From assembly GCA_900320505.1 (NCBI GenBank), contig ONSL01000001.1, forward strand, positions 1 through 57,726: 57,726 nucleotides of DNA. The letters are read 5' to 3'. The translations under genes were made by a program, and so were the position numbers. Positions 1,328 through 52,997 of the stretch are shown piece after piece. The stretch's first letter is position 1; each line of letters starts with the position of its first letter. The DNA is from an uncultured Eubacteriales bacterium. Its GTDB lineage: Bacteria; Bacillota_I; Bacilli_A; RF39; UBA660. The notes under the pieces were generated by a model. That model did not search any database. It was given only the letters and a program-made list of their open reading frames with translations, and had not been told where the DNA came from.

Positions 1328-2443
1328 ATGGCAAAAACAGTTGTCGTCGGAATGAGTGGTGGAGTAGATTCATCAGTTGCAGCAATTATTTTAAAGAAAC
1401 AAGGATATAATGTTATTGGACTTTTTATGAGAAACTGGGATAGTACAATTAATAATGATTATCTTGGTAATCCCAATATTGGTAATGTTGATATTTGTCC
1501 TCAGGAAACAGATTATAATGATGCTTTAGCAGTATGCAAAAAAATAGGTATTCCACTTCATAGAATAGATTTTGTTAAGGAATACTGGGATGACGTCTTT
1601 AAATATTTTCTTGATGAACTAAAGAAAGGTAGAACACCAAACCCTGATATTATGTGTAATAAATATATTAAATTTGACCTTTTCGCAAAAGAAGCTAGAA
1701 AGCTTGGGGCAGATTATATTGCAACGGGTCACTATGCTAAACTAGAGAATGGCTATTTAAAGCGTTCTCTAGACCAAAACAAGGACCAAACGTATTTCTT
1801 GTCACAAGTAACAAAAGAAGAGCTAAAAGATGTCTTATTTCCTCTTGCAGACTATCTTAAACCTGATGTTAGAAAAATAGCTGATGAATATGGATTAGTA
1901 ACAGCACATAAAAAGGATTCAACTGGAATATGCTTTATTGGTGAAAGAAACTTTACTAAATTTCTAGAAAACTATCTTCCAAATAAAGAAGGGGATATTA
2001 TAGATATTGAAACTGGTAAAAAACTGGGTAAGCATATTGGTCTTATGTATTACACTATTGGACAGAGAAGGGGACTTGATATAGGAGGTACTAAAGATAA
2101 ACTATTTGTTGTAGGTAAAGACTTAAATAAAAATATATTATATGTTGCAGAGAAAGAAGATAATGAGTATCTATACTCTACAAGCTGCATAATAGAAGAT
2201 GTTAATTTAAATTGTGATTTAAGGCCTACAAAGTGTACCGCTAAATTTCGCTATAGACAAAAAGATAACCCTGTAGAACTTGAATATCTTGATGATGGCA
2301 ATATTTTAGTTAAATATGAACAAGGTGTTAAAAGTGTTACACCAGGTCAAGCATGTGTCTTATATGATGGTGATATATGTCTAGGTGGTGGCATCATAAA
2401 AGAAGTTAGAAAAGATGGTAAAAAGTTATGGTATGTGCTATAG
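1328..2443 (+). CDS. mnmA: tRNA-specific 2-thiouridylase MnmA
   Basis: N-terminal PP-loop VVGMSGGVDSSVAA, motifs PNPDIMCN and DQTYFL. Typical length of 371 aa. Confidence 0.95.
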   Translation: MAKTVVVGMSGGVDSSVAAIILKKQGYNVIGLFMRNWDSTINNDYLGNPNIGNVDICPQETDYNDALAVCKKIGIPLHRIDFVKEYWDDVFKYFLDELKKGRTPNPDIMCNKYIKFDLFAKEARKLGADYIATGHYAKLENGYLKRSLDQNKDQTYFLSQVTKEELKDVLFPLADYLKPDVRKIADEYGLVTAHKKDSTGICFIGERNFTKFLENYLPNKEGDIIDIETGKKLGKHIGLMYYTIGQRRGLDIGGTKDKLFVVGKDLNKNILYVAEKEDNEYLYSTSCIIEDVNLNCDLRPTKCTAKFRYRQKDNPVELEYLDDGNILVKYEQGVKSVTPGQACVLYDGDICLGGGIIKEVRKDGKKLWYVL

Positions 2444-2539
2444 CTTTTTTATTTTAATTAAAAATTTTGATAATCTATATATAACATATATAAAATTCAG
2501 TACTCTAATTTTAAATTATAATAAACGTAAAGTTTACAC

Positions 2540-2568
2540 TTGACATTATATGTAAACCCAGATAAAAT
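2540..2568 (+). promoter_or_regulatory. putative sigma-A promoter overlapping a 7-bp inverted repeat (candidate operator)
   Basis: TTGACA (2540-2545), 17-nt spacer, TAAAAT (2563-2568). GTTTACA (2532-2538) and TGTAAAC (2551-2557) bracket the -35 element. Confidence 0.5.
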
Positions 2569-2590
2569 TAATAATGGAGGGTATCTTAAA

Positions 2591-3358
2591 ATGAACGAAT
2601 TAAACAAACTAATAAGTGAACTAGGAATATCAAAAGTAAGTCTTGCTAAATATTTAGGTGTATCAAGACAAATGCTTTATAACTATCTAGGATTTGATAG
2701 TATAGAAAAGTGGCCAGATGAGAAGAAAAACAAACTTTATAATTTATTTAGTGTTAAAAGTGAAGCTGAACTTAAGAATTTAAATTTAGACAATAATATT
2801 GTTAAATCAGTTAATTCTAAACTTGAAAATGCTGCAAAGGCAAGTACTAAAGATGAAATAATTACTGATTTAAAAAACTTTAATAGAAAAGAGCAGGGGA
2901 TATTATCTGATATCATAAATCTATTAAAAGAAAAGATGGAGAAAAATAGTTCTAAAGAAACATATAATACGTATACTTATTTATATCATTTCTTACAATC
3001 AATGGATGCAAATCCAGAACTTAAATATTTTATGGTATATGCATCAAAATCTTTAGGATTTACTGATCCAGATAAATATGATTTTAATGAGAATAAACAA
3101 TTTATTTTTGAATCAATTATGTATAGTGCTTTTACAATTTATAAAAGTGGCGATTTATCAAGATCAAAAATTAAAGCTAGACATGATTCATTTGTACAAG
3201 AAATTTCAAATAAACAAGAAGAAAAACTTGGTAGAACTTTGGAATTGAATATGAATACATTAGAAGCATTAAAAGAACTTGGTTATTCAGAAATAACTGC
3301 AGAGAATGCTAAAGAAGTATTAGAAAAAATAGCAGAAATAGAAAGTAGGAAGGTATAG
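2591..3358 (+). CDS. XRE-type helix-turn-helix DNA-binding protein with a ~190-aa uncharacterised C-terminal domain
   Basis: The HTH ISKVSLAKYLGVSRQMLYNYL lies at the N-terminus. A GGAGGG RBS sits ~8 nt before the ATG at 2591. The track start at 2540 is the TTG of the promoter -35, so it is probably not used. Confidence 0.75.
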   Translation: MNELNKLISELGISKVSLAKYLGVSRQMLYNYLGFDSIEKWPDEKKNKLYNLFSVKSEAELKNLNLDNNIVKSVNSKLENAAKASTKDEIITDLKNFNRKEQGILSDIINLLKEKMEKNSSKETYNTYTYLYHFLQSMDANPELKYFMVYASKSLGFTDPDKYDFNENKQFIFESIMYSAFTIYKSGDLSRSKIKARHDSFVQEISNKQEEKLGRTLELNMNTLEALKELGYSEITAENAKEVLEKIAEIESRKV

Positions 3359-6748: not shown

Positions 6749-7965
6749 TAATACCCCTAGCTAAAAGAATGGAGCCTAAAACTTTAAAGGATGTTTTAGG
6801 ACAAGATGAGCTTACTGGCAAAGGAAAAGTTCTTCAAAATATGGTTAAATTTAAACATCCATTTTCATTCATTTTAACTGGTCCTCCAGGAATTGGAAAA
6901 ACATCAATTGCAATTGCACTTTCAAACGATTTAGGTATGAGATGTAAAGTTATCAATGCAACAGATAGCAGTAAGAAAGACCTAGATATTGCAAGAGAAG
7001 AAGCTAAAATGTATGATGGTATGATATTAATAATTGATGAAATTCATAGGCTTAATAAAGATAAGCAAGATATATTATTGCCTATGATTGAAAGTGGTCT
7101 TATTGTTCTAATAGGAATGACAACAGAAAACCCATATCATTCAATTAATCCTGCTATTAGAAGTAGATGTGAAATATTTGAGCTTAAGTCTCTTGAAAAG
7201 GATGATATTATAAAAGGACTTAAAAAAGCAGTAAAAAAGGAGCTTACGGATATTAAAATAGATAATAAATCACTTGATTTAATTGCAACTATTTCTGGAA
7301 ATGATTTGAGATCTGCATATAACTTGCTTGATATTTGTTATATGCAAAATGAAGATCATAAAGTTGATATTGATACTGTAAAAATAGTTAACAATAAGCC
7401 TGTTTTCTTTGCAGATAAAAATGGTGCTGGTCATTATAATGTAATGAGTGCTCTTCAAAAATCTATAAGAGGATCTGATGTAGATGCTGCGCTTCATTAT
7501 ACTGCAAGGCTTCTTGCCGAAGGGGACTTAAAAACGTTAGAGAGAAGATTATCAGTTATTGCATATGAAGATATTGGTATGGCAAATCCAGATATTGGTG
7601 TAAGACTTGATGCCGCAATAAATGCTGCAGAACGTGTTGGACTTCCAGAAGCAATAATTCCATTTGGCGAAATAGTTTGTGAAATGGCTCTTTCTCCAAA
7701 GAGTAATTCTTCATATCTTGCAATAAATGCTGCAATAGATGATATAAATAAAGGAAATGTTGGAGAAATACCACATCATATTGTTAAAGGATCTCCTGAC
7801 TATAAATATCCTCATGATTACCCTAATGATTATGTATATCAGGAATATCTGCCTAAAAAATTAAAAAATGTTAAATATTATCATCCTAAAGCTAACGGAT
7901 ATGAAATTAATTATAAAGAAGTTTATGATAAGTTAGAAAAAATAAAAGAAAGTCATTTGAAATAG
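6745..7965 (+). CDS. rarA: replication-associated recombination protein A (MgsA/RarA AAA+ ATPase)
   Basis: Walker A GPPGIGKTS, Walker B LIIDEIHR, and C-terminal MgsA-type HYNVMSALQKSIRGSD. Confidence 0.9.
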   Translation: MIIPLAKRMEPKTLKDVLGQDELTGKGKVLQNMVKFKHPFSFILTGPPGIGKTSIAIALSNDLGMRCKVINATDSSKKDLDIAREEAKMYDGMILIIDEIHRLNKDKQDILLPMIESGLIVLIGMTTENPYHSINPAIRSRCEIFELKSLEKDDIIKGLKKAVKKELTDIKIDNKSLDLIATISGNDLRSAYNLLDICYMQNEDHKVDIDTVKIVNNKPVFFADKNGAGHYNVMSALQKSIRGSDVDAALHYTARLLAEGDLKTLERRLSVIAYEDIGMANPDIGVRLDAAINAAERVGLPEAIIPFGEIVCEMALSPKSNSSYLAINAAIDDINKGNVGEIPHHIVKGSPDYKYPHDYPNDYVYQEYLPKKLKNVKYYHPKANGYEINYKEVYDKLEKIKESHLK

Positions 7966-7971
7966 ACTTTC

Positions 7972-8907
7972 TTATTTTATATTAAGAATAAATAATTCTA
8001 GTGGATTTTCACTAATATTTGTACCATTTTTAATACTTAAATCAAGATTATAAAAACTATTTATTAATTCGTTTATATCTTTTTCACTAACATATGCAAG
8101 TACTTTTGACATAACATATATTCTTTTTTCACTAATTGGAGGATCTGATATACTTCTATTTTCGCTTATTTCTTTATCAGAATATCCTAAATCTTTCATC
8201 TTTGAAATTATTTTTAACACCCTAAGTTCAGACTCTATAAGACCAGTTAATGCTGCATCATCTACATTATATTTTTTAAATTCTTCATATGTTTTTATTG
8301 CATTATATTTATCTTTCTTTGCAATAGATGAAGTAAGAGAAAAAGCAAGAGGCGTATAATCATCCATTCTTTTATAACAGACTGCTTTTATATCATTTTC
8401 GTCTATTGTGCTCCCCTTTTCTTTGTATTCATAGAGTTTATTACATTCTGCTGTAATACTATCTATATCATTATTTGTATAGTCTAAAATCATATTTTTA
8501 GTAAGCATTGATACATTATAATCTTTTAGTTTTTCATTTAAATAACCCATAGGATCATTATTTAATTCAATATACTTTGAGTGTTTCTTAATTTCTTTTA
8601 TAGTTTTTCTTACATTGTTTAACTTATCATCTGTAAGTATTAATGTATAGTCCTTATTAGGATTTTCTAAATATTTTATAAGCAACTTATAATCTTTATC
8701 AGTATCACTTATATTCATTATTTGTCTTACTATAATTAATTTTTTTACACTAAATAAAGAATATGTATTTAAGTCTTCAAGTACTTCAGATAATGTATTT
8801 TCTTCTAAATCATAATTTGATATTTCTTCACTACTAAAGTCTTTTTTAATGCCATTTATGTATTTTTCTAAAAGAGCGAATGATTGATATTTAATCAGAT
8901 AATTCAT
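7972..8907 (-). CDS. holA: DNA polymerase III delta subunit (HolA-like)
   Basis: 311 aa. The overall pattern and length resemble Firmicute YqeN/HolA (LFSVKKLIIV..., C-terminal helical domain). The start overlaps the alaS stop by 17 nt. Confidence 0.6.
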   Translation of the reverse strand: MNYLIKYQSFALLEKYINGIKKDFSSEEISNYDLEENTLSEVLEDLNTYSLFSVKKLIIVRQIMNISDTDKDYKLLIKYLENPNKDYTLILTDDKLNNVRKTIKEIKKHSKYIELNNDPMGYLNEKLKDYNVSMLTKNMILDYTNNDIDSITAECNKLYEYKEKGSTIDENDIKAVCYKRMDDYTPLAFSLTSSIAKKDKYNAIKTYEEFKKYNVDDAALTGLIESELRVLKIISKMKDLGYSDKEISENRSISDPPISEKRIYVMSKVLAYVSEKDINELINSFYNLDLSIKNGTNISENPLELFILNIK

Positions 8908-11581
8908 TTATTTCACTTTCTACCATTTCAACTATATCATCAATCTTTGACATATCTTTAGCACCACCTGATGCAAATGTTGCAGATCCACCTCCGCCTG
9001 CTCCTAGATATGTACTCATTTTCTTTATTAATAATCCTGCATTTATTTTACCATTTGTTCTTAAAATTAAGGATGCACCTTTATCATTTTTATTAATAAA
9101 TAATCCAAGTACAAGATTATAATCATTAATTAGTGTATCTAGGACAACTTTAATCAACTCTTTATCTTCGTCATTAGACTCTTTAATTAGATATTTCTTA
9201 CCATTTATTTCTTTTATATAATCTTTATAACTATCAATATTACCAAGTACTTTTTCTTCTCTTAACTTGAAGAATTTCTTGTCAAGTACAGATACCTCAT
9301 CTTCTACATATTTTAATTCATTTTGATTAAATACTATGTCTTTATATCCAGTAGGTTTACTATTGTCTATATCAACATCAAAATCTAAATGTAATCCTAA
9401 TTCTTCTGCTTCTCCTAAAACCTCTTTTGCATGCATTAATAGTTTAACCATCTCATCATTATATGGTTTTATAACCTCATATAGGCTTCTCTTAATATAA
9501 TCATTTGTTACTGCTTCTATTCTATACGTATTAGCTCCTTTTGACTCACATGATGTAATTGCAATGCTTTTAATTTCTTTACTACTAGAAACATGTGTAC
9601 CACCACATAGTTCCATACTTTTGCCTATTTTTACAACACGTACAATGTCACCATATTTTTCTGTAAATAATGCCATCGCACCTAATTCTTTAGCTTTATC
9701 TATTGGCATTACTTCAGTACTAACAATAAAGCCTTTCTTTATGAATTTATTACATTCATCTTCTACTTTTATGATATCATCATCAGATAAAATTCCACTA
9801 TATGTAAAATCAAGTCTTAATCTTTCTGGAGCAACATAGCTTCCTGCCTGTCTTATATCCTTATCGATATATGTTCTTAAAATATAGTGAAGAATATGTG
9901 TTGCACTATGATTTACTTCAATCATCTTTCTTCTTTCTTTATCACATACTGATTCAACCTGATCTCCTAATTTCATCACACCATCAAGTATTTTAACATG
10001 ATGCATGTTTTGTCCATTAGGACCTTTAAATACACTTAATACACGAGCTTTAAAGTTATCACCTATAATCATACCAGTATCGCTTACTTGGCCACCAGAT
10101 TCAGCATAAAGACATGTTTTAGAAAGAGATACTATGCCTTCTTTAGAAAGTACTTTTACACTTGCATCCTTTGTAAATAATCCATTAATTTTACCTTTAA
10201 CTCTATATATTCCATAACAGAATGTACTTTTCTCTTTAAAGTCTACAAGTATTTGTTTACCGCTTGCCATTGCACTTTTATTTTTAGAACTTTTTCTTGC
10301 AAGATCCTTTTGCATTTCCATATATTTATCAAATTCTTCTTTTGAGGTAGTAAATCCATTTTCTTTTAATATTTCAAGAGTAAGTTCAAATGGAAATCCA
10401 TATGTATCATAAAGTTTAAATGCATCTTCACCAGATATTGTTTTATCACTTGAATTTTTCATTAAGTTTTCAAGTATTCTTTCCCCATCATTTAATGTTA
10501 ATCTAAACTGTTTTTCCTCTATTAATATTTTACTCTTTATGTATGCAGCTTTATTAACTAGATATGGATATGCTTCTTTCATAACATCTGTTACTGTATC
10601 AACTAGTTTATACATAAAGTTCTCTTCAATACCAATCTTTTTGCCAGCTCTTACACTTCTTCTTAAAAGACGTCTTAATACATAACCTCTTTTTGTATTT
10701 GAGAAATTTTCTCCATCAGCAAGTGCAAATGTTAAAGCTCTTATATGATCTGCAATAATCTTAAATTCTGCTTCTCCATTATATTTTTTACCTGATATTT
10801 GTTCAATGCTATTCATAATTGGTGTAAATAAATCAGTTTCAAATGTTGAATCAGCTTCTTGCATAATCATACACCAGCGTTCAAGACCAGCTCCTGTGTC
10901 AATATTTTTATGAGGAAGTTCCTTATATTCAGATCTTTTCTTACCAGGCTCTGAATTAAATTGTGAGAAGACATTATTCCATATTTCTATGTAGCGCTCT
11001 TGATCTTCATCTTTTTTAAACTTTTCAAGAGCAGTTTCATCTCCATACTCTTCTCCTCTATCGTAGAATATTTCTGAATCTGGTCCACATGGTCCTTCCC
11101 CTATTTCCCAGAAGTTTCCATCAAGTTTTACTATATGATCAGGTATAAATCCAACTTCAATCCATTTATTTAGACTTGCTTCATCATCTGTATATATTGT
11201 TACATATAGTTTTTCTTTTGGTATTGCAAAATACTTTTCTGATGTTAAAAGTTCAAAGCTCATCTCAATTGCTTCATCTCTAAAATAATCTCCAATAGAA
11301 AAATTGCCCATCATCTCAAAGAATGTTTGATGACGTTTTGTAATACCTACGTTTTCTATATCATTAGTTCTTATACATTTTTGTATATTAGTAAGGCGTT
11401 TAGAAGGAGGAAGCTCTCTTCCATCAAAGTATTTCTTTAGTGGTGTTACTCCTGCATTTATCCATAAAAGACTATCATCATTAACTGGTATCAATGATGC
11501 AGACTCAATTACTGTATGTCCATGCTCTTTGAAGTAATTTAGCCACATATTTCTTATTTCCATATGTGTCATGTATTTCAT
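8891..11581 (-). CDS. alaS: alanine--tRNA ligase
   Basis: 896 aa. Class II motifs FFEMMGNFSIGDYF, editing-domain HSATHIL and CGGTH, and a C-terminal Gly-rich DHHA1 region. Confidence 0.97.
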   Translation of the reverse strand: MKYMTHMEIRNMWLNYFKEHGHTVIESASLIPVNDDSLLWINAGVTPLKKYFDGRELPPSKRLTNIQKCIRTNDIENVGITKRHQTFFEMMGNFSIGDYFRDEAIEMSFELLTSEKYFAIPKEKLYVTIYTDDEASLNKWIEVGFIPDHIVKLDGNFWEIGEGPCGPDSEIFYDRGEEYGDETALEKFKKDEDQERYIEIWNNVFSQFNSEPGKKRSEYKELPHKNIDTGAGLERWCMIMQEADSTFETDLFTPIMNSIEQISGKKYNGEAEFKIIADHIRALTFALADGENFSNTKRGYVLRRLLRRSVRAGKKIGIEENFMYKLVDTVTDVMKEAYPYLVNKAAYIKSKILIEEKQFRLTLNDGERILENLMKNSSDKTISGEDAFKLYDTYGFPFELTLEILKENGFTTSKEEFDKYMEMQKDLARKSSKNKSAMASGKQILVDFKEKSTFCYGIYRVKGKINGLFTKDASVKVLSKEGIVSLSKTCLYAESGGQVSDTGMIIGDNFKARVLSVFKGPNGQNMHHVKILDGVMKLGDQVESVCDKERRKMIEVNHSATHILHYILRTYIDKDIRQAGSYVAPERLRLDFTYSGILSDDDIIKVEDECNKFIKKGFIVSTEVMPIDKAKELGAMALFTEKYGDIVRVVKIGKSMELCGGTHVSSSKEIKSIAITSCESKGANTYRIEAVTNDYIKRSLYEVIKPYNDEMVKLLMHAKEVLGEAEELGLHLDFDVDIDNSKPTGYKDIVFNQNELKYVEDEVSVLDKKFFKLREEKVLGNIDSYKDYIKEINGKKYLIKESNDEDKELIKVVLDTLINDYNLVLGLFINKNDKGASLILRTNGKINAGLLIKKMSTYLGAGGGGSATFASGGAKDMSKIDDIVEMVESEINELSD

Positions 11582-12491: not shown

Positions 12492-14312
12492 CTACCTAAA
12501 AATCTTATTTATTACTCTATCAAGTTCTACTTTTGCAATTGGTTTTGCAATATACTCATCAAATCCATCCTCAAGTACATATTTTTCTCTCATACCATCT
12601 ACTGCATTTGCAGTAAGCATTACAGTTGGTGTCTTAAATCCTGGATTTTTCTTAAGTTCCTTAAATGTTTCAACGCCAGACATTCCAGGCATCATATCAT
12701 CCATTAATATCATATCATAATGAGCGCCATTATTTATTAAATCTAAACATTCTTTTCCACTTGTAACTGATACGACTTCTACATTATATTTTTTTAAAAG
12801 ACGTTCTGCAACTTTTATGTTAAGAGTGTTATCATCAACTATTAATATTCTTTTACCACTAATATCTTTTTCTTCTATTTTTTCATCTTGCTTATCCTTT
12901 TCTATATTAACAAGTTCTTGATCTATTGCAACAGTGATTTTTAATCCTCTTTCATAAACATTTTGTGCCATTATCTCACCATTCATTAATTTAACTAATT
13001 TATATGTTGATGGAAGATCTGCTACAACTCCTTCTAGCATACTTTCTTTTGAAAGTTTTGACGATTTGCTAACAAAGATCTTATCAAGTCTATTCTGACT
13101 CATTGTTCCACCTGTATCTTCAACTGAAATAATTATTCTGCTACTATTTCCTTTATTAATTGTTGTTGCACTAAATTCAATATATCCAGCATCAGTTCGT
13201 TCTATACTATTTGCAATTATATTAAGTATTATTTGGCGAAATACCTTATAATCTCCCTTTAATGCTTTAGGAAGTTCTGTATCAAAGCTTGTTCTAAATT
13301 GAACCTTTTTATTTCCTATTACTTCTTTAGAAAAATCAGCAATTTCATCAAGCATTGCTTTTAAATCATAAGTTTTAGGATCTAATTTTATACTATTCTT
13401 ATCAAATTTAGATAAATCAAGTATTTTATTAACGACCTCTAACAAATTATTAGCAGATGCCTCAATATTTTCTACATCGCTTTTAGCACTACCATCTATA
13501 TTTTTTTCTTTTAAACTATCAGTAAATCCAATTATATTAGTAAGTGGGGTTCTAATTTCATGTGAAATATTATATAAAAATTTAGTTTTAGCACTATCAC
13601 TATCTTCTAGTTCTTTCTTCGTTTTATTTAAATCTTTTATCGTTTTTAAATCAGGATTTTCTATTGTAAAATACATTAGAAATACTATAAATGTTTCTAC
13701 TGGTGTTGTTAAAAATAAACTCTTATATTTATAACTTATAACAAATGCTATTGGAAGAAGAATTGTATAGCAAATTAATGGAACAAACTTTTCCTTTTTT
13801 ATATTTTTTCTTCCAAGTATCATAAATATTAAGCTTATAACTATAGTTATTGTACTCATACACATGCAAAGAAGTGATCCAGGTCCATATGAATATACAC
13901 TATTTGTACCATTACTTTCAAAATATATTGGCAATAATAAAAGTGCAAAAGCAAGTGCAAAATATGTCTTTAAAAATATACCTCTAACTTTTTTGTAAAT
14001 ATCATTCTTATCAAATCTATATGCTAACTTCTTACTAAATGATATTAAGAATGTATAATATAAAAATAGCATTGAAAATGTAAGAAGATATATAAGGTAT
14101 AATTTATTAATTATTGATACTGCTCCCCCATATATTCCTTTGTTTAATGTTATAACATAACTTATTAATGAAATTGCAAGTCCTATAAAGTTCGTTATTA
14201 ATAAATTTCCATAAGTTTTATTTTCATTATTATCTTCTTTATCCTTTGTAAAGTATACTATTAGCAAAAGTGCACTATAGAATATACTTATAATTATAAA
14301 AGCTGCTCCCAT
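12492..14312 (-). CDS. hybrid sensor histidine kinase (multi-TM sensor, HisKA, HATPase, C-terminal receiver)
   Basis: About 6 N-terminal hydrophobic helices. H-box NISHEIRTPLTNI and an ATPase domain are present. The receiver reads KRILIVDDN...DMILMDDMMPGMSG...AKP. Confidence 0.85.
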   Translation of the reverse strand: MGAAFIIISIFYSALLLIVYFTKDKEDNNENKTYGNLLITNFIGLAISLISYVITLNKGIYGGAVSIINKLYLIYLLTFSMLFLYYTFLISFSKKLAYRFDKNDIYKKVRGIFLKTYFALAFALLLLPIYFESNGTNSVYSYGPGSLLCMCMSTITIVISLIFMILGRKNIKKEKFVPLICYTILLPIAFVISYKYKSLFLTTPVETFIVFLMYFTIENPDLKTIKDLNKTKKELEDSDSAKTKFLYNISHEIRTPLTNIIGFTDSLKEKNIDGSAKSDVENIEASANNLLEVVNKILDLSKFDKNSIKLDPKTYDLKAMLDEIADFSKEVIGNKKVQFRTSFDTELPKALKGDYKVFRQIILNIIANSIERTDAGYIEFSATTINKGNSSRIIISVEDTGGTMSQNRLDKIFVSKSSKLSKESMLEGVVADLPSTYKLVKLMNGEIMAQNVYERGLKITVAIDQELVNIEKDKQDEKIEEKDISGKRILIVDDNTLNIKVAERLLKKYNVEVVSVTSGKECLDLINNGAHYDMILMDDMMPGMSGVETFKELKKNPGFKTPTVMLTANAVDGMREKYVLEDGFDEYIAKPIAKVELDRVINKIFR

Positions 14313-14666: not shown

Positions 14667-14769
14667 CAATATAATACATTTTTTTACAATTTTATACCTA
14701 TTTTTATACCTAAATTATAAATTATGACAAAAATTAAAGCATAAAAAGCACATTTTAATATTAATTTTA

Positions 14770-14934
14770 CTATTTGCATATGTCCCCATCATTTATTCTT
14801 CTTATAGATGAACCAACTCCTTCTCCAGCTTCAAATAGTACTTTTATTATACTTGTTATAGCATTTATCATACTACTTGTTATACTAGCAGATCCTCCAT
14901 CTATTTTTAAAAGTTCATTATTATTTATTTTCAT
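14770..14934 (-). CDS. double-glycine-leader peptide B (54-aa precursor, predicted 40-aa mature peptide)
   Basis: Hand translation gives MKINNNELLKIDGG|SASITSSMINAITSIIKVLFEAGEGVGSSIRRINDGDICK, ending in TAG at 14772..14770. The ATG overlaps the peptide A stop as TAATG. Not in the ORF track. Confidence 0.75.
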   Translation of the reverse strand: MKINNNELLKIDGGSASITSSMINAITSIIKVLFEAGEGVGSSIRRINDGDICK

Positions 14935-15074
14935 TAGTTACTGCATGGCTTTTCATGAGTATATCCAGTAATTATTCCAGATGCAAATATTATTATAGAT
15001 GTAACAATTAAGTATACCCATGTACCAATTTCACCTCCACTTATCTTTTCTAGTTCTTCTTTTTCTAGTTTCAT
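14934..15074 (-). CDS. double-glycine-leader peptide A (46-aa precursor, predicted 32-aa mature peptide)
   Basis: Hand translation gives MKLEKEELEKISGG|EIGTWVYLIVTSIIIFASGIITGYTHEKPCSN. An AAGGAG RBS is present. The ATG overlaps the stop of the 128-aa ORF as ATGA. Not in the ORF track. Confidence 0.8.
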   Translation of the reverse strand: MKLEKEELEKISGGEIGTWVYLIVTSIIIFASGIITGYTHEKPCSN

Positions 15075-15457
15075 TTTTTCTCCTTCCATGGTTTTATAAG
15101 CATACTATAAATGCTTTTCTTATCATTATATATGCTTATATTTAATTTAGTCTTCTTATTTACTTTTCTGCTTTTCATTATTATCAAACTTAAATTTTTG
15201 TATGAAACATTATCTTTTTCAAGTATTTCTATCTTTTCTCTCTTACTATTTAGATATATATAAGGATTTTTTTCCAAATACTTTAAATCCTTCTTTTTTA
15301 CATAAACTTCAAATGTATGACTAGATAAATAAATTCCCTTATAGTAGTTATATGTATAATATTTTTTAGAAAATATAAATATTATTAGAATGACAAATAA
15401 AATTAAATAAAAGACACTTATATATGTTATTAATATATTAGTTTTATAGTTTCTCAA
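15071..15457 (-). CDS. small single-pass membrane protein (minimal accessory or immunity candidate)
   Basis: 128 aa with one N-terminal TM helix (ILITYISVFYLILFVILIIFIF) and a Lys-rich beta-looking C-terminal part. It is translationally coupled to the ABC gene (14-nt overlap) and to peptide A. Confidence 0.6.
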   Translation of the reverse strand: MRNYKTNILITYISVFYLILFVILIIFIFSKKYYTYNYYKGIYLSSHTFEVYVKKKDLKYLEKNPYIYLNSKREKIEILEKDNVSYKNLSLIIMKSRKVNKKTKLNISIYNDKKSIYSMLIKPWKEKK

Positions 15458-17501
15458 TTATTTTACCATCCTCAAGTGTTAATATTCTATCAAACAAATT
15501 ACTTGCATTTAATCTATGACTAATTACAATTACAGTTTTGTCTTTTAAATATATAAGTATTTCTTTTAGCATTCTCTTTTCTTCTTCAATATCAAGTGCA
15601 TTAAATGCCTCATCAAATATATAAATATCACTTTTTTTCATTAAACTTCGAGCGATAATTATTCTTTGACGTTCACCACCTGATAAATTTTCTCCATCTT
15701 CTTCAATCATTTCATCTAGTCCAAGTTTGGTTTTATATATTTTAGAAAGACCTGTTATTTTTTCAATGTTTTCAATATCATCTCCATCTTTATATACTAT
15801 ATTGTCTCTAATTGTTCCAGTAAATAAGGATTCCTTTTGAGAGGTGTAGGAAATATGTGTTCTAATCATGTCTAAATGAATATGTGAAATATCAATATTA
15901 TTTATCCTTATCATTCCACTATCTATTTCAATTAAACCTGCTAGTATCTTCACGAGTGTTGACTTACCTATTCCACTTTTTCCAAGTAAGAATATTTTTT
16001 CTTTATTTTTAATAGTTAAATCTAAATTATTAAATATTTTCTTTGTTCCATATGAATAATTTAATTTTTTGATTTTAATATTTCCATTTAATTTGTATTT
16101 GTTAAAATATTCATTACAATTAAAATTATCAATATTTACCATAAATAGATCTTCTATTCTTCTTTTAGATATTTTGTAATCTGTAAAATCTGTTAAAATA
16201 CTAGTGCATCTTTCAAATGATGATACAAAATATTCATATAAAGTATACATAAGTATAAGACTTGGTAGAGATAAAGAACTTTTTATTATCATATAAGATG
16301 ATATAGAAAGAAGAGAAAGCTTTGCAAGGGAAGATAAAAAACTATCTGCTTTACTATTCATACCATTAAATAAAATAAACTTATATGATTTAGATAAAAA
16401 ATTTCTATATACTTTTAGAAAACCATTTAATCTTTCTTTTTCTATATGCATATCTTTAATTGTATTCATACCCTTTATGTTTTCATATAATATACTATTT
16501 ACCTTGTCTTCTTCATTTAATAAGAGCTTTTTATTGCTTTTATAATATCTTAATGTGAATATTTTTATTATCAATTTAATAAAATATATTATAAATATGA
16601 TTATAGCAATTTTTAAATTATATCTTATTAATTTAAATGAAACAAGAATGATAACCATTAGATCAAGTGGTATGTATACTATTAATTTTACTAAAAAGTT
16701 TTTAATACTTTCCAAATCTTTTACTTTAGATACAATCTCTCCACTTGTTCTTGATTCATAATAAAGATATGGTAAAAGAGTTATTCTAGATAATATCTTC
16801 TTTGTTAAATACTCATTAAGGCTTGTTGTTAGTTTAATAGAATAAGAAAGAGATATAAGACCTGCAGCATTTCTAAAAAGTTCTAAAACAATAAATAAAG
16901 ATACTATTATATAGATATTATTTATCATATTATAATTAATAGATTCATTTAAAAATATATTAAATTCTGATGAACATAATAAAGTTAAAATAAATTCAAT
17001 TATTACAAATATAACTAAATAAAAAGTATTATTATCTTTTAAGAAGTCTTTTATCCATGGTTTGATTATATTTTTCTCTTTATAATGTGGTAAATTCTTA
17101 ATAGGCTTTAAATATATAAATATACCACTTGATTCGAGTTTAAACTCTGAAAAATTAATTATCTTTTTACCATAATAAGGATCCATTATAAGTAACTTTT
17201 TATGCTTTTTATCTATCTTGTATATCACTATAAAATGTTTTAGATTCTTATTAACTATTATATGTGCAATTATAGGTAAATCTTTTTCATTAATATTTTC
17301 AAGTTCATCTTTTAATCCAAAAGATGAGAATCCAAGATTTTCTGCAGTTGTTACAAGATCAAGTGCTGTAACACCATTTTTTGTAGTGTGTGTAAGTTCT
17401 CTTAAATATTCAAGAGAAATATTTCCACCATAATGTCTTATAACAGAAAGAAGTGAACAAACTCCACAATCCTTGATTCCTTCTTGTTTAACTATTTCCA
17501 T
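15444..17501 (-). CDS. bacteriocin/peptide-processing ABC transporter with N-terminal C39 peptidase domain
   Basis: C39 motifs QEGIKDCGVCSLLSVIRHYGG and HFIVIYKID...MDP. Six-TM core. Walker A GKSGIGKST, signature LSGGERQR, Walker B IYIFDEAF. Confidence 0.92.
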   Translation of the reverse strand: MEIVKQEGIKDCGVCSLLSVIRHYGGNISLEYLRELTHTTKNGVTALDLVTTAENLGFSSFGLKDELENINEKDLPIIAHIIVNKNLKHFIVIYKIDKKHKKLLIMDPYYGKKIINFSEFKLESSGIFIYLKPIKNLPHYKEKNIIKPWIKDFLKDNNTFYLVIFVIIEFILTLLCSSEFNIFLNESINYNMINNIYIIVSLFIVLELFRNAAGLISLSYSIKLTTSLNEYLTKKILSRITLLPYLYYESRTSGEIVSKVKDLESIKNFLVKLIVYIPLDLMVIILVSFKLIRYNLKIAIIIFIIYFIKLIIKIFTLRYYKSNKKLLLNEEDKVNSILYENIKGMNTIKDMHIEKERLNGFLKVYRNFLSKSYKFILFNGMNSKADSFLSSLAKLSLLSISSYMIIKSSLSLPSLILMYTLYEYFVSSFERCTSILTDFTDYKISKRRIEDLFMVNIDNFNCNEYFNKYKLNGNIKIKKLNYSYGTKKIFNNLDLTIKNKEKIFLLGKSGIGKSTLVKILAGLIEIDSGMIRINNIDISHIHLDMIRTHISYTSQKESLFTGTIRDNIVYKDGDDIENIEKITGLSKIYKTKLGLDEMIEEDGENLSGGERQRIIIARSLMKKSDIYIFDEAFNALDIEEEKRMLKEILIYLKDKTVIVISHRLNASNLFDRILTLEDGKIIEKL

Positions 17502-17541
17502 TTTTCACCTCCCTATTATATATATACGAAAAAAAATTAAG

Positions 17542-17586
17542 AAAATTGCACTTTTAATAAAAAAAATTGCATTTTTTTGCAATTTT
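17542..17586 (-). promoter_or_regulatory. three copies of the 9-mer TGCAATTTT (one inverted, two direct at 21-bp phasing); terminator and/or operator
   Basis: The plus strand carries AAAATTGCA at 17542-17550 and 17563-17571, and TGCAATTTT at 17578-17586. The outer pair forms a hairpin followed by a T-run on the minus strand. Confidence 0.45.
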
Positions 17587-50768: not shown

Positions 50769-52937
50769 CTATTTTTTATCTTTCTTTTTACCTTTTAATT
50801 CTTCTTGTGCATCCTTTCTTGAAAAATTAAGTCTGCCCTTTTTGTCTTCTCCAATTGCTTTAACTAGTATCTCATCACCTAATTTAACAACATCTGAACA
50901 CTTTTCAACTCTCTTCGTATCAAGTTTTGATATATGTATAAGTCCTTCGCATCCAGGCCATAATTCAACAAATACTCCATAGTCTTCTATTCTTACGACT
51001 TTAGCATTGTAAATTTTTCCTTCTTCAACTTCTCTTGCAATATCTTCTATCATCTTACGAGTTTTATTTATTATATCCATATCCTTATGATATATAACAA
51101 CTTGTCCATCTTCTTTTAGATCAACTTTTACTGCATTAACATCATTTACATCGTTAACATTTGATACTTCACAAATAATTTTTGTAATTGTGTCTCCACC
51201 TTTTCCAATAACATCTTTTATCTTTGATGGATTAATATTAAATACAACAGTTTTAGGAGCATATTTTGAAACTTCTTTACGAGGCTCTTTTATAGTCTTT
51301 TCTATAACATCTAATACCTCATATCTTGCTTTCTTAGCTTGTTCTAATGCTTCTTTTAATATCTTTTTATTGATTCCAGATACTTTTATATCCATTTGAA
51401 GAGCGCAAATACCATTACGAGTACCAGCAACTTTAAAGTCCATATCTCCTAAATGATCTTCCATTCCTTGTATATCAGTTAAAACTGTATAATCTTTTCC
51501 ATTTGGAGCGGTAATTAGACCCATTGCAATACCAGCAACTGGTGCCTTAATTGGAACACCTGCTGCCATAAGTGACATACATCCTGCACAAATTGATGCT
51601 TGTGATGATGATCCATTTGATTCAAGTATTTCAGAAACAACTCTTATTGTATATGGAAATTCTTCTTCTGATGGTATTACCATACGTAGTGCTTTTTCTC
51701 CTAATGCTCCATGACCTATCTCACGACGACCAGGTGCACCATATCTTCCAGTTTCTCCAACACAGAATTTAGGAAAGTTATAATGAAGCATAAATCTTTT
51801 AGCATCTTCAAGCCCTAATCCATCAAGTACTTGATGTTCTCCAAGTGCTCCAAGTGTTGTTACAGAAAGTGCTTGTGTTTCACCTCTTGTAAATAATGCT
51901 GATCCATGTGTTCTAGGAAGAAGATCTACACGTGCTGAAAGGGGTCTTATCTCATCCATCTTTCTTCCATCAGGTCTTATCTTATCTATTACAATAATCT
52001 TTCTAAATTCACGATATTCAATATCATCAAATACCTTTGCAACTTTAGTAAGTAAAAGTGTTAATTCATCTTCTTCTAATTCATCCTTGTTTTTCTCTTT
52101 GTATTCTCCTATCAAATCTTCTTTAATCTTATCAACTGCAGCATGCATTGCAAGTTTTTCTTTTATTCTTAATGCTTTATTTAATTTATTTGCAATTTTA
52201 TCATCAATTTCAGATCTTAGTGCATCATCTATTTCAAGGCGTTCATAATCCATCTTTTCTTCGCCAATCTTATCAACTATTTCATTTTCAAATTCTACAA
52301 GTTCTTTAATAGCTTTATGGCCTTCCATTAATCCTTTTAGCATTATTTCTTCTGATGCTTCATGTGCACTAGATTCAACCATGTTAATTGCTTTTTCAGT
52401 ACCCGCAACTGTTAAATCTATTAAACTATTTTCAAGTTCTTCTACTGTTGGGTTAATTACGTATTTCTTATTTATATATCCAACTTTTACACCAGCAACT
52501 GGTCCATTAAATGGAATTTTACTTATTGAAAGTGCAACACTAGATCCTAAAAGTGCAGCAAGTTCAGGTGATGCATCAGGTTCTACAGAAAGAACAGTAT
52601 TTACTATTTGTACCTCATTCTTAAAGTCTTCTGGAAATAGTGGTCTAATAGGTCTATCAATCATTCTAGCGGCAAGAGTAGCTGCCTCTGTTGGTCTTCC
52701 TTCCCTTTTAATAAATCCACCAGGTATTTTACCTACAGCATATAACTTTTCTTCATAATTAACTGTTAATGGAAAAAAGTCTGACAAAAGATTTACCTCA
52801 TCATTTAATACAACTGCTGTTAATACAACTGTATCTCCATATCTTACTAGTACACTACTAGTAGCTTGTTTTGCAAGTTCTCCATGTTCAATTATTATTT
52901 TTTTGCCATAAAAATCTTTTTCAAATATTCTCTTCAT
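50769..52937 (-). CDS. pnp: polyribonucleotide nucleotidyltransferase (PNPase)
   Basis: Two RNase PH domains, KH (GKGGDTITKI) and S1 (VVRIEDYGVFVEL). GGAG RBS before the ATG at 52937. Confidence 0.97.
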   Translation of the reverse strand: MKRIFEKDFYGKKIIIEHGELAKQATSSVLVRYGDTVVLTAVVLNDEVNLLSDFFPLTVNYEEKLYAVGKIPGGFIKREGRPTEAATLAARMIDRPIRPLFPEDFKNEVQIVNTVLSVEPDASPELAALLGSSVALSISKIPFNGPVAGVKVGYINKKYVINPTVEELENSLIDLTVAGTEKAINMVESSAHEASEEIMLKGLMEGHKAIKELVEFENEIVDKIGEEKMDYERLEIDDALRSEIDDKIANKLNKALRIKEKLAMHAAVDKIKEDLIGEYKEKNKDELEEDELTLLLTKVAKVFDDIEYREFRKIIVIDKIRPDGRKMDEIRPLSARVDLLPRTHGSALFTRGETQALSVTTLGALGEHQVLDGLGLEDAKRFMLHYNFPKFCVGETGRYGAPGRREIGHGALGEKALRMVIPSEEEFPYTIRVVSEILESNGSSSQASICAGCMSLMAAGVPIKAPVAGIAMGLITAPNGKDYTVLTDIQGMEDHLGDMDFKVAGTRNGICALQMDIKVSGINKKILKEALEQAKKARYEVLDVIEKTIKEPRKEVSKYAPKTVVFNINPSKIKDVIGKGGDTITKIICEVSNVNDVNDVNAVKVDLKEDGQVVIYHKDMDIINKTRKMIEDIAREVEEGKIYNAKVVRIEDYGVFVELWPGCEGLIHISKLDTKRVEKCSDVVKLGDEILVKAIGEDKKGRLNFSRKDAQEELKGKKKDKK

Positions 52938-52997
52938 ATTTACTCCAATCACTTCTATTGTATAACAAAAACCTTAAAAATAAAAGAAGAAAGTCTT

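Follow-up and report, generated by a model that had tools for sequence, protein, structure and literature searches.

A conserved C39-ABC peptide cassette beside rpsU in uncultured Bacilli, putatively encoding a class IIb-like two-peptide agent

What does a C39-type ABC exporter release from an uncultured bacterium when two small genes lie directly behind it, and at whom is the product directed? The question is raised by a locus in a 57,726-nucleotide (nt) stretch of an uncultured Eubacteriales bacterium (GenBank assembly GCA_900320505.1, contig ONSL01000001.1), the whole of which is called the window here. An earlier note, made from the letters alone, had proposed that two unannotated small open reading frames (ORFs), peptides A and B, form a class IIb two-peptide bacteriocin locus. 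After comparing the window with related loci, we consider that the system probably yields a GxxxG-paired, class IIb-like two-peptide membrane-active agent exported by a peptidase-containing ABC transporter (PCAT), with a third peptide (C) and/or a small membrane protein (acc) acting in immunity or as accessory factors. The proposed extent of the locus was partly right: A and B do lie behind the exporter, but the unit is larger, as peptide C had been overlooked and the acc family travels with the cassette. The five genes form a translationally coupled operon on the minus strand (window 14684-17501), in the order C39-ABC exporter, acc, A, B and C:

15444..17501, minus strand: PCAT, 685 amino acids (aa); from Pfam, NCBIfam and alignment to PDB entries
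15071..15457, minus strand: acc, 128 aa, N-terminal transmembrane helix and small beta domain, TTG start; from AlphaFold2 and profile search
14934..15074, minus strand: peptide A precursor, 46 aa; leader MKLEKEELEKISGG, mature part of 32 aa EIGTWVYLIVTSIIIFASGIITGYTHEKPCSN
14770..14934, minus strand: peptide B precursor, 54 aa; leader MKINNNELLKIDGG, mature part of 40 aa SASITSSMINAITSIIKVLFEAGEGVGSSIRRINDGDICK
14684-14779, minus strand: peptide C, 31 aa, MQIVKLILKCAFYALIFVIIYNLGIKIGIKL, candidate immunity peptide; conserved ORF, recovered in related loci by hidden Markov model (HMM)

The exporter and its peptides

The coordinates of A (15074..14934) and B (14934..14770) on the minus strand were confirmed, and the junctions read as the earlier note had described them: an AAGGAG ribosome-binding site lies 5 nt 5′ of the ATG of peptide A, this ATG shares the letters ATGA with the TGA stop of acc, and the A stop and B start share TAATG. 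Further upstream, the stop of the ABC gene is overlapped by 14 nt by the TTG start of acc. Read from the sequence, this translational coupling indicates that A and B are made in a fixed proportion. The start of A was placed at 15074 because an upstream ATG at 15089 is absent from one related locus (L036).

Both leaders are 14 residues long and fit the double-glycine consensus, with the hydrophobic spacing at -4, -7 and -12 that had been claimed as C39-type and with Glu at -8. The length is one below the 15-30 residues given for class IIb leaders (PMC2850506); the motif itself occurs and is conserved. When all six frames of the 57.7-kb window were scanned strictly for the double-glycine pattern, only A and B came up, plus an N-terminally extended form of A. 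The description of the mature peptides as hydrophobic or amphipathic was likewise borne out, as mature A comprises one transmembrane-length helix with G33xxxG37 and Cys44 and a transmembrane-grade hydrophobicity (Kyte-Doolittle 19-residue maximum, 1.99), and mature B is amphipathic (hydrophobic moment, 0.63) and carries G37xxxG41-S, RR and Cys53. Among the related loci we found 52 distinct variants of A, 55 of B and 34 of C. The consensus of A is a leader ending ..ELEKIKGG followed by xxxIWxGIAIAAxVVFxSGVIEGITNPxRCN, and that of B is a leader ending ..GG followed by xTxISGxIINAxxNVIKxLxDAGxSxGSGIRRIxExxLCPLE. The GxxxG motifs noted earlier in both peptides are invariant across 8 aligned lineages and all of these A and B variants; the other invariant positions are the GG site, W19, F30 and C44 in A and the GG site, N24, R46 and C53 in B.

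Comparative evidence indicates that A and B are genuine genes, far beyond chance. Both were called by the gene callers of four independent assemblies, and the window (27% G+C) matches a rumen metagenome scaffold on which the 46- and 54-aa genes were called independently. In three close lineages both frames are open, the ratio of nonsynonymous to synonymous polymorphism (pN/pS) is below 1 (0.2-0.7) and substitutions rise from codon position 2 to 1 to 3; no stops interrupt the sense frames of the cassette ORFs in the related lineages compared. By Nei-Gojobori counts, the corresponding divergence ratio (dN/dS) is 0.13-0.28 for A, 0.44-0.57 for B, 0.31-0.62 for C and 0.29-0.43 for acc, with 0.02-0.05 for ribosomal protein S21. 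HMMs recovered A and B in more than 60 further loci, with E-values of 1e-11 to 1e-30 across more than 50 distinct variants, so that the conservation of the small ORFs and their GG leaders, which the earlier note had put forward as a check, was found. The opposite view, that these ORFs are chance frames in AT-rich DNA and that the real gene is the antisense ORF at 14774..14971 (plus strand) or none, has in its favor that the antisense frame over B exists, is stop-free in the three closest lineages and, among 62 distinct homologous B genes, runs open for 60 aa or more in 37. However, it is broken in the other 25, whereas the sense frames are open in all loci and the GG leaders, Shine-Dalgarno sequences and start/stop coupling are conserved. 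We therefore give this view next to no probability and take it as already refuted by conservation; the antisense ORF appears spurious, as had been suggested.

The exporter is a PCAT by its build. Pfam models identified Peptidase_C39 at its start (E 4.8e-30), as had been claimed, followed by ABC_membrane (six-helix) and ABC_tran, and the catalytic Cys12, His89 and Asp107 align with the peptidase residues of ComA and PCAT1. The nucleotide-binding domain carries Walker A at 507, LSGGE at 606 and Walker B at 626, and the whole protein aligns end to end with ComA (8hf7) and PCAT1 (4ry2) at E ~1e-75. Against NCBIfam TIGR01193 (peptide cleavage/export ABC transporter) it scored 341 bits, under the cutoff of 523.85. 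ComA exports the competence pheromone CSP (competence-stimulating peptide), and the cargo of PCAT1 is ~90 aa. The window transporter shares with both the three-domain build and the catalytic Cys/His/Asp, but it is paired with a small novel accessory protein and its cargo differs.

The profile searches suggested in the earlier note gave a divided answer. All 8 aligned A orthologues matched TIGR03949 (class IIb, lactobin A/cerein 7B), and three exceeded its cutoff of 21.5 bits over the full model (L049, 26.5; L052, 35.7; L006, 27.1), but window A scored 18.9 bits. As three of its orthologues pass, we regard window A as a divergent homologue rather than a scored member. The orthologues match the model along the leader and the hydrophobic Gly/Ala-rich core, whereas the model has nothing that corresponds to the TNPxxC/THxKPC tail or to the obligate partner B. 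The Pfam ComC match (E 0.21) covers the leader only, and a match to the VP1 model is likewise weak and leader-only. For peptide B, Pfam- and NCBIfam-type model searches gave no family match beyond the leader; the A and B HMMs found nothing relevant among PDB sequences, and the A profile retrieved only three close lineages from a 5.8-billion-cluster database in a word-limited search. These profile matches relate peptide A, at some divergence, to the class IIb lactobin A/cerein 7B family. Peptide B, acc and peptide C are in no described family. The cassettes make up a large uncharacterised family on the class IIb theme, of which the window locus is a divergent member.

A and B are adjacent and occur together in every cassette recovered. 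Among 51 distinct A/B pairs, B has exactly one Cys in 51/51; A carries a single Cys in 46 pairs, and in the other 5 it has another within the transmembrane region. Around the cysteines of the two peptides, flanking residues co-vary in blocks, TNPxxC of A with CPLx of B, RP[LV]KC with C[QRS], and THxKxC with C[KR]. The window belongs to a divergent branch in which A ends in THxKPC, B lacks the PLx tail and C is shortened to 31 aa.

Peptide C consists of one basic transmembrane helix, and its GxxxG is invariant (consensus MSxRIKxI..LPIxPI..FxFxLGxYxGxFLRNLY). In the overlap of B and C (window 14770-14779), its start codon consists of the base before the B Cys codon and the first two bases of that codon, so the B end GAC ATA TGC AAA TAG reads as ATG CAA ATA in the C frame. 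The same overlap is present in L005, L006, L046 and many of L060-L139, and the N-TG overlap start is kept in 42/54 distinct contexts. Therefore, the C-terminus of B (CPLx) and the N-terminus of C (MSxR) are dual-coded. C occupies the position expected of an immunity gene, with a candidate size of 31-61 aa, and is truncated or absent in ~20% of lineages.

Distribution and descent of the cassette

A metagenome scan with the window S21 returned 80 loci, with S21 82-97% identical, from human gut, rumen, squirrel and sludge. With HMMs for A, B, C and acc, the cassette was found directly upstream of rpsU in ~66 of 77 informative loci, and ~11 loci with enough upstream sequence had no cassette. The latter make the cassette dispensable, which fits an accessory competitive trait. 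The same five ORFs occur in two related lineages, RUG530 (ABC 71% identical) and a third known from short contigs. Loci with distant acc members (24-30% identical) repeat the layout of C39-ABC, acc, a 47-51-aa GG peptide, a 56-58-aa GG peptide, a small overlapping transmembrane ORF and rpsU. One metagenome-assembled genome (MAG), L006 (ABC 33% identical), has the ABC gene, A, B and C; acc is missing. All cassette hosts are uncultured, the named ones being Candidatus Onthousia faecigallinarum (Bacilli incertae sedis), a "Bacilli bacterium" MAG and RUG530 (labelled Clostridiales).

The earlier note had described the unit as inserted between a TtcA-like gene and rpsU. This part of its account did not hold, since the compared loci indicate that the cassette is not a recent insertion and is ancestrally linked to rpsU in dozens of lineages. 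ABC and S21 co-diverge (Spearman 0.72 between their pairwise identities over 46 distinct loci), and G+C at third codon positions is 11-20% in the cassette, within the host range, although its overall G+C, 22%, is lower than the 27% of the window. Lineages differ in the upstream flank (TtcA, tRNA-Ala, unrelated proteins or an Xre regulator) but share the rpsU side. Relative to RUG530 (L005), a ~32-kb segment of the window (17550-50040) is rearranged or inverted, with one breakpoint just upstream of the ABC promoter. In RUG530 the ABC gene is immediately preceded by M23 peptidase, M50 peptidase and tRNA-Ala genes; in the window these lie at 48.3-50.0 kb (plus strand), next to the polynucleotide phosphorylase gene (50769-52952, minus strand). 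The TtcA adjacency of the window cassette is thus explained by this rearrangement.

Competing readings of the product

Operons of the lactococcin G type combine the structural genes with genes for immunity, an ABC transporter and an accessory protein (PMC2850506). The window cassette resembles lagA-lagB in its adjacent double-glycine peptide genes, GxxxG in both peptides and a coupling from which ~1:1 output is expected, and its single operon likewise includes a dedicated C39-ABC exporter, an accessory gene and a small membrane protein where the immunity gene would be. Because the adjacent peptide pair, the C39-ABC gene in the operon and the paired GxxxG motifs correspond to the class IIb definition and to this operon type (PMC2850506), we took a two-peptide agent as the best explanation. 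The cassette differs from the lactococcin G type in that the exporter comes first and the accessory protein is a 128-aa transmembrane and beta protein. The usual Gram-positive accessory protein is ~450 aa. Additionally, the window peptides are non-cationic and carry one conserved Cys each, A is much more hydrophobic, the immunity candidate is dual-coded with B, and the locus is clade-wide beside rpsU rather than strain-variable or plasmid-borne.

Overall, we propose a putative mechanism in which a chromosomal, vertically inherited operon makes, processes, exports and probably neutralises a two-peptide agent. By analogy with the established PCAT mechanism, the C39 peptidase would cut after GG during export and release A (32 aa, 3527 Da) and B (40 aa, 4155 Da). 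Outside the cell, as in the class IIb model, the hydrophobic A helix and the amphipathic B helix would pair via GxxxG, and on the same model the pair would make a target membrane leaky by inserting into it, probably at a receptor that is a conserved membrane protein. More speculatively, the C-terminal cysteines of A and B may lock a disulfide heterodimer of ~7680 Da. As peptide C has no leader, it is presumably not exported, and C and/or the membrane-anchored acc would protect the producer or assist export.

Several observations weigh against such an agent. Characterised class II bacteriocins are typically cationic, yet the net charge is -1 for mature A and 0 for mature B, with most orthologues at -2 to +2 and mostly neutral or anionic. 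Window A itself falls below the TIGR03949 cutoff. The cassette sits at a fixed site beside rpsU, near fixation in a broad clade, and co-diverges with S21; tblastn of acc against PLSDB plasmids, and of the B orthologue of the L046 lineage against PLSDB plasmids and INPHARED phages, gave no match. The mature regions are conserved at least as strongly as the transporter and the leaders (mean pairwise identity: ABC, 44.5%; mature A, 46%; mature B, 54%; leaders, 43-47%, with 43% for the B leader), the reverse of the usual bacteriocin pattern. No module of pheromone, kinase and regulator accompanies the cassette. Gut and rumen are reducing habitats, and the invariant Cys of B may be held partly by the overlapping start codon of C rather than by a disulfide; 12 contexts retain this Cys with C truncated or absent. 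The class IIb reading of the earlier note is therefore supported in part: the exported peptide pair, the A orthologues in TIGR03949 and the GxxxG motifs agree with it, whereas the non-cationic, unusually conserved and clade-fixed peptides, without plasmid or phage copies, do not.

Constrained mature peptides, a near-fixed locus and non-cationic charge keep alive a self- or kin-directed role, which we judge clearly less likely than the two-peptide agent but substantial enough to be taken seriously. Here the same exporter would carry a product with a purpose other than attack. A, B and C together would build a conserved assembly of membrane peptides that acts on the producer or its kin, with possible envelope or developmental functions or kin-directed lysis (cannibalism or fratricide in sporulation). 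Such a role would explain the core-gene-like inheritance of the cassette at one chromosomal site clade-wide, its co-divergence with S21 and the stronger constraint on the mature peptides than on the leaders and transporter. It also agrees with the lack of positive charge, with the hydrophobicity of A, which is that of a true transmembrane segment, with a third GxxxG peptide dual-coded with B and with the sporulation genes that adjoin the locus in some lineages. Developmental PCATs are documented, as for HetC in Nostoc (PMC10986499). However, the ~11 related loci without the cassette and the lineages that lost C or acc indicate that the system is not essential, and the family relatives of peptide A are bacteriocins only. 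Conserved chromosomal two-peptide bacteriocins also occur within species, such as CibAB of pneumococcus, which again counts against a self- or kin-directed role. A bolder version, which we consider unlikely, is an ancient, vertically inherited module of low-GC gut Bacilli that exports a Cys-Cys A-B heterodimer, assembles it with C through three GxxxG helices into a membrane complex and acts on kin or in physiology, or that is ancestral to the orphan C39-ABC and small-protein pairs of mycoplasmas, including that of the progenitor of the minimal cell.

The double-glycine leaders are also shared with pheromones of the ComC, BlpC and plantaricin A type, to which the weak leader-only ComC and VP1 matches would correspond, and in the sub-clade of the window a hybrid kinase lies two genes downstream (12492-14312). 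A and/or B might thus be pheromones sensed by a two-component system that includes this kinase. We consider this improbable, since A (32 aa) and B (40 aa) are long, occur only as a pair and have transmembrane-like or GxxxG-bearing sequences. The kinase, with its HisKA, HATPase_c and REC domains, is not of the peptide-sensing type with a LytTR partner, and in most lineages it does not stand beside the cassette. Neither a ComC/BlpC family match nor a cognate kinase and regulator was found. Because kinase and cassette are unlinked in most lineages and a similar kinase stands by rpsU in cassette-less relatives, we regard the two as independent. The two-peptide membrane-active agent, with C and/or acc in immunity or accessory roles, therefore remains our preferred reading.

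Signals, acc and neighbouring genes

The cassette is flanked by the following features:

17559..17583, minus strand: weak terminator-like hairpin (ATTGCA-aaaaaa-TGCAAT) with T-run at the 3′ end of the TtcA-like gene; read from the sequence
17502..17558, minus strand: predicted promoter and Shine-Dalgarno region, TTTTCGTATATATATAATAGGGAGGTGAAAA then ATG; element kept across lineages
14666-14638, minus strand: rpsU promoter (TTGAAA-17-TGcTATAAT); read from the sequence
14603-14400, minus strand: rpsU (S21), the constant downstream neighbour; from Pfam and NCBIfam
14401-14377, minus strand: terminator after rpsU; from a terminator scan

The hairpin, which has counterparts with a T-run 5′ of the ABC gene in most other lineages, appears to mark the cassette as a separate transcription unit. 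The consensus terminator scan was silent on it because its stem has fewer than three G-C pairs. Three TGCAA repeats 5′ of the ABC gene were considered as regulator-binding direct repeats and dropped, as the lineage comparison resolved them into the terminator-like hairpin. A -10-like TATAAT/TAATAT and, after it, AGGAGGTGA are kept in front of the ABC gene across lineages, from which a promoter function of 17502..17558 is predicted. The element CGAATAATAtAaTAGGAGGTGA, a -10-like box fused to the Shine-Dalgarno sequence, precedes the ABC gene in the window (17502-17530) and in L046, L093, L094, L097, L101, L122, L134 and others. In many lineages 13-17 nt separate GGAGG from the annotated GTG/ATG start of the ABC gene, an unusually long spacing that may point to a different true start or to a tiny upstream ORF. 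The terminator scan found no terminator in the stretch between peptide C and rpsU, and an Rfam search of the locus found no RNA family.

We consider acc a candidate export accessory or immunity protein, on the basis of its predicted structure and its position. It adjoins the ABC gene in nearly all cassettes and has no Pfam domain. Its AlphaFold2 model has a predicted local distance difference test (pLDDT) score of 85, and Foldseek against the PDB found no significant fold match (best E 0.09), so an HlyD-like adaptor fold is unsupported. An exhaustive profile search returned 61 cluster representatives, all of 79-175 aa and most of 115-143 aa; a metagenome scan with a 9-sequence acc alignment found nothing, the pattern being too degenerate.

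A parallel exists in mollicutes. Mycoplasmas carry orphan C39-ABC exporters without a known GG peptide (PMC6609329, citing Dirix 2004). M. genitalium transcribes its C39-ABC gene MG_390 together with the small MG_389 (PMC4446450), a pair also recorded in PMC6105099, and gene 0401 of JCVI-syn3A is a further record (PMC6609329). The likeness lies in a C39-ABC gene followed by a co-transcribed small protein, and the cassette hosts are likewise low-GC Bacilli. acc aligns end to end with the 126-position model of the Mycoplasmopsis MAG1140 family (NF045999) at 18.7 bits against a cutoff of 35, and this family is matched by acc and 17 of its 52 aligned relatives (18/53), all below the cutoff. The ABC protein scores 311.7 bits against NF045998 (Mbov_0121 family; cutoff 500), and a general bacteriocin ABC model scores higher. 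However, the window ABC and acc thus fall below all curated Mbov_0121 and MAG1140 cutoffs, and GG peptides are not known in mycoplasmas; we therefore treat the relation as a lead and not as demonstrated homology. A match of the L049 A orthologue to MPN313 (NF045747; E 0.0017, first 41 positions) is probably noise, because MPN313/MG_220 is RrlA, described as a sigma-20 accessory protein. MG_390 and MG_389 of M. genitalium belong to the same sigma-20 regulon as RrlA.

Other observations concern neighbouring genes. In the clade of the window, rpsU is closely followed by the hybrid histidine kinase at 12492-14312 (HisKA, HATPase_c, REC). In cassette-less relatives (L076, 2147-4884; L085, 4086-4886), the side just upstream of rpsU is occupied by a similar 608-aa hybrid kinase, likened to that of the window by domain layout, and by an HPt-REC-like protein, so that the link between a phosphorelay and rpsU does not depend on the cassette. 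A few loci have an additional gene between C and rpsU, and in L006 (CAZBOZ010000004.1) it encodes a 386-aa DUF6273 protein. L006 is labelled "uncultured Muribaculaceae", yet its rpsU, VanZ-like and YbeY-like surroundings and its cassette resemble low-GC Bacilli, and the bin label may be wrong. In L049 (Candidatus Onthousia), a double helix-turn-helix regulator of the Xre family (2351-2809, minus strand) is divergent from the ABC gene and may be a lineage-specific cassette regulator; a serine recombinase and a transposase-like gene lie further upstream. The 430-aa proteins 5′ of the ABC gene in L046 and L049 were rejected as large accessory proteins, being mutually unrelated and without relevant domains. 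In the near-identical strain L002 (ERZ28613612), a cysteine-desulfurase-like gene (1873-2451) was called as a 192-aa fragment and the hybrid kinase (7069-8939) is split into ORFs of 283 and 337 aa, with all five cassette genes intact; the broken genes could be pseudogenes or assembly errors.

Standard bacteriocin miners miss the cassette because A scores below the family cutoffs and no models exist for B, C and acc. If our reading is correct, uncultured Bacilli of the gut and rumen, a large group with human-gut lineages among them, would share one unannotated peptide system. It would stand out for a possible interchain disulfide, a very small immunity candidate that is dual-coded, and an exporter accessory protein of a new type. 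Because the cassette is inherited like a core gene, one may ask whether it serves competition or the producer's own biology, and it offers a concrete place to seek the missing substrates of mollicute C39 exporters.

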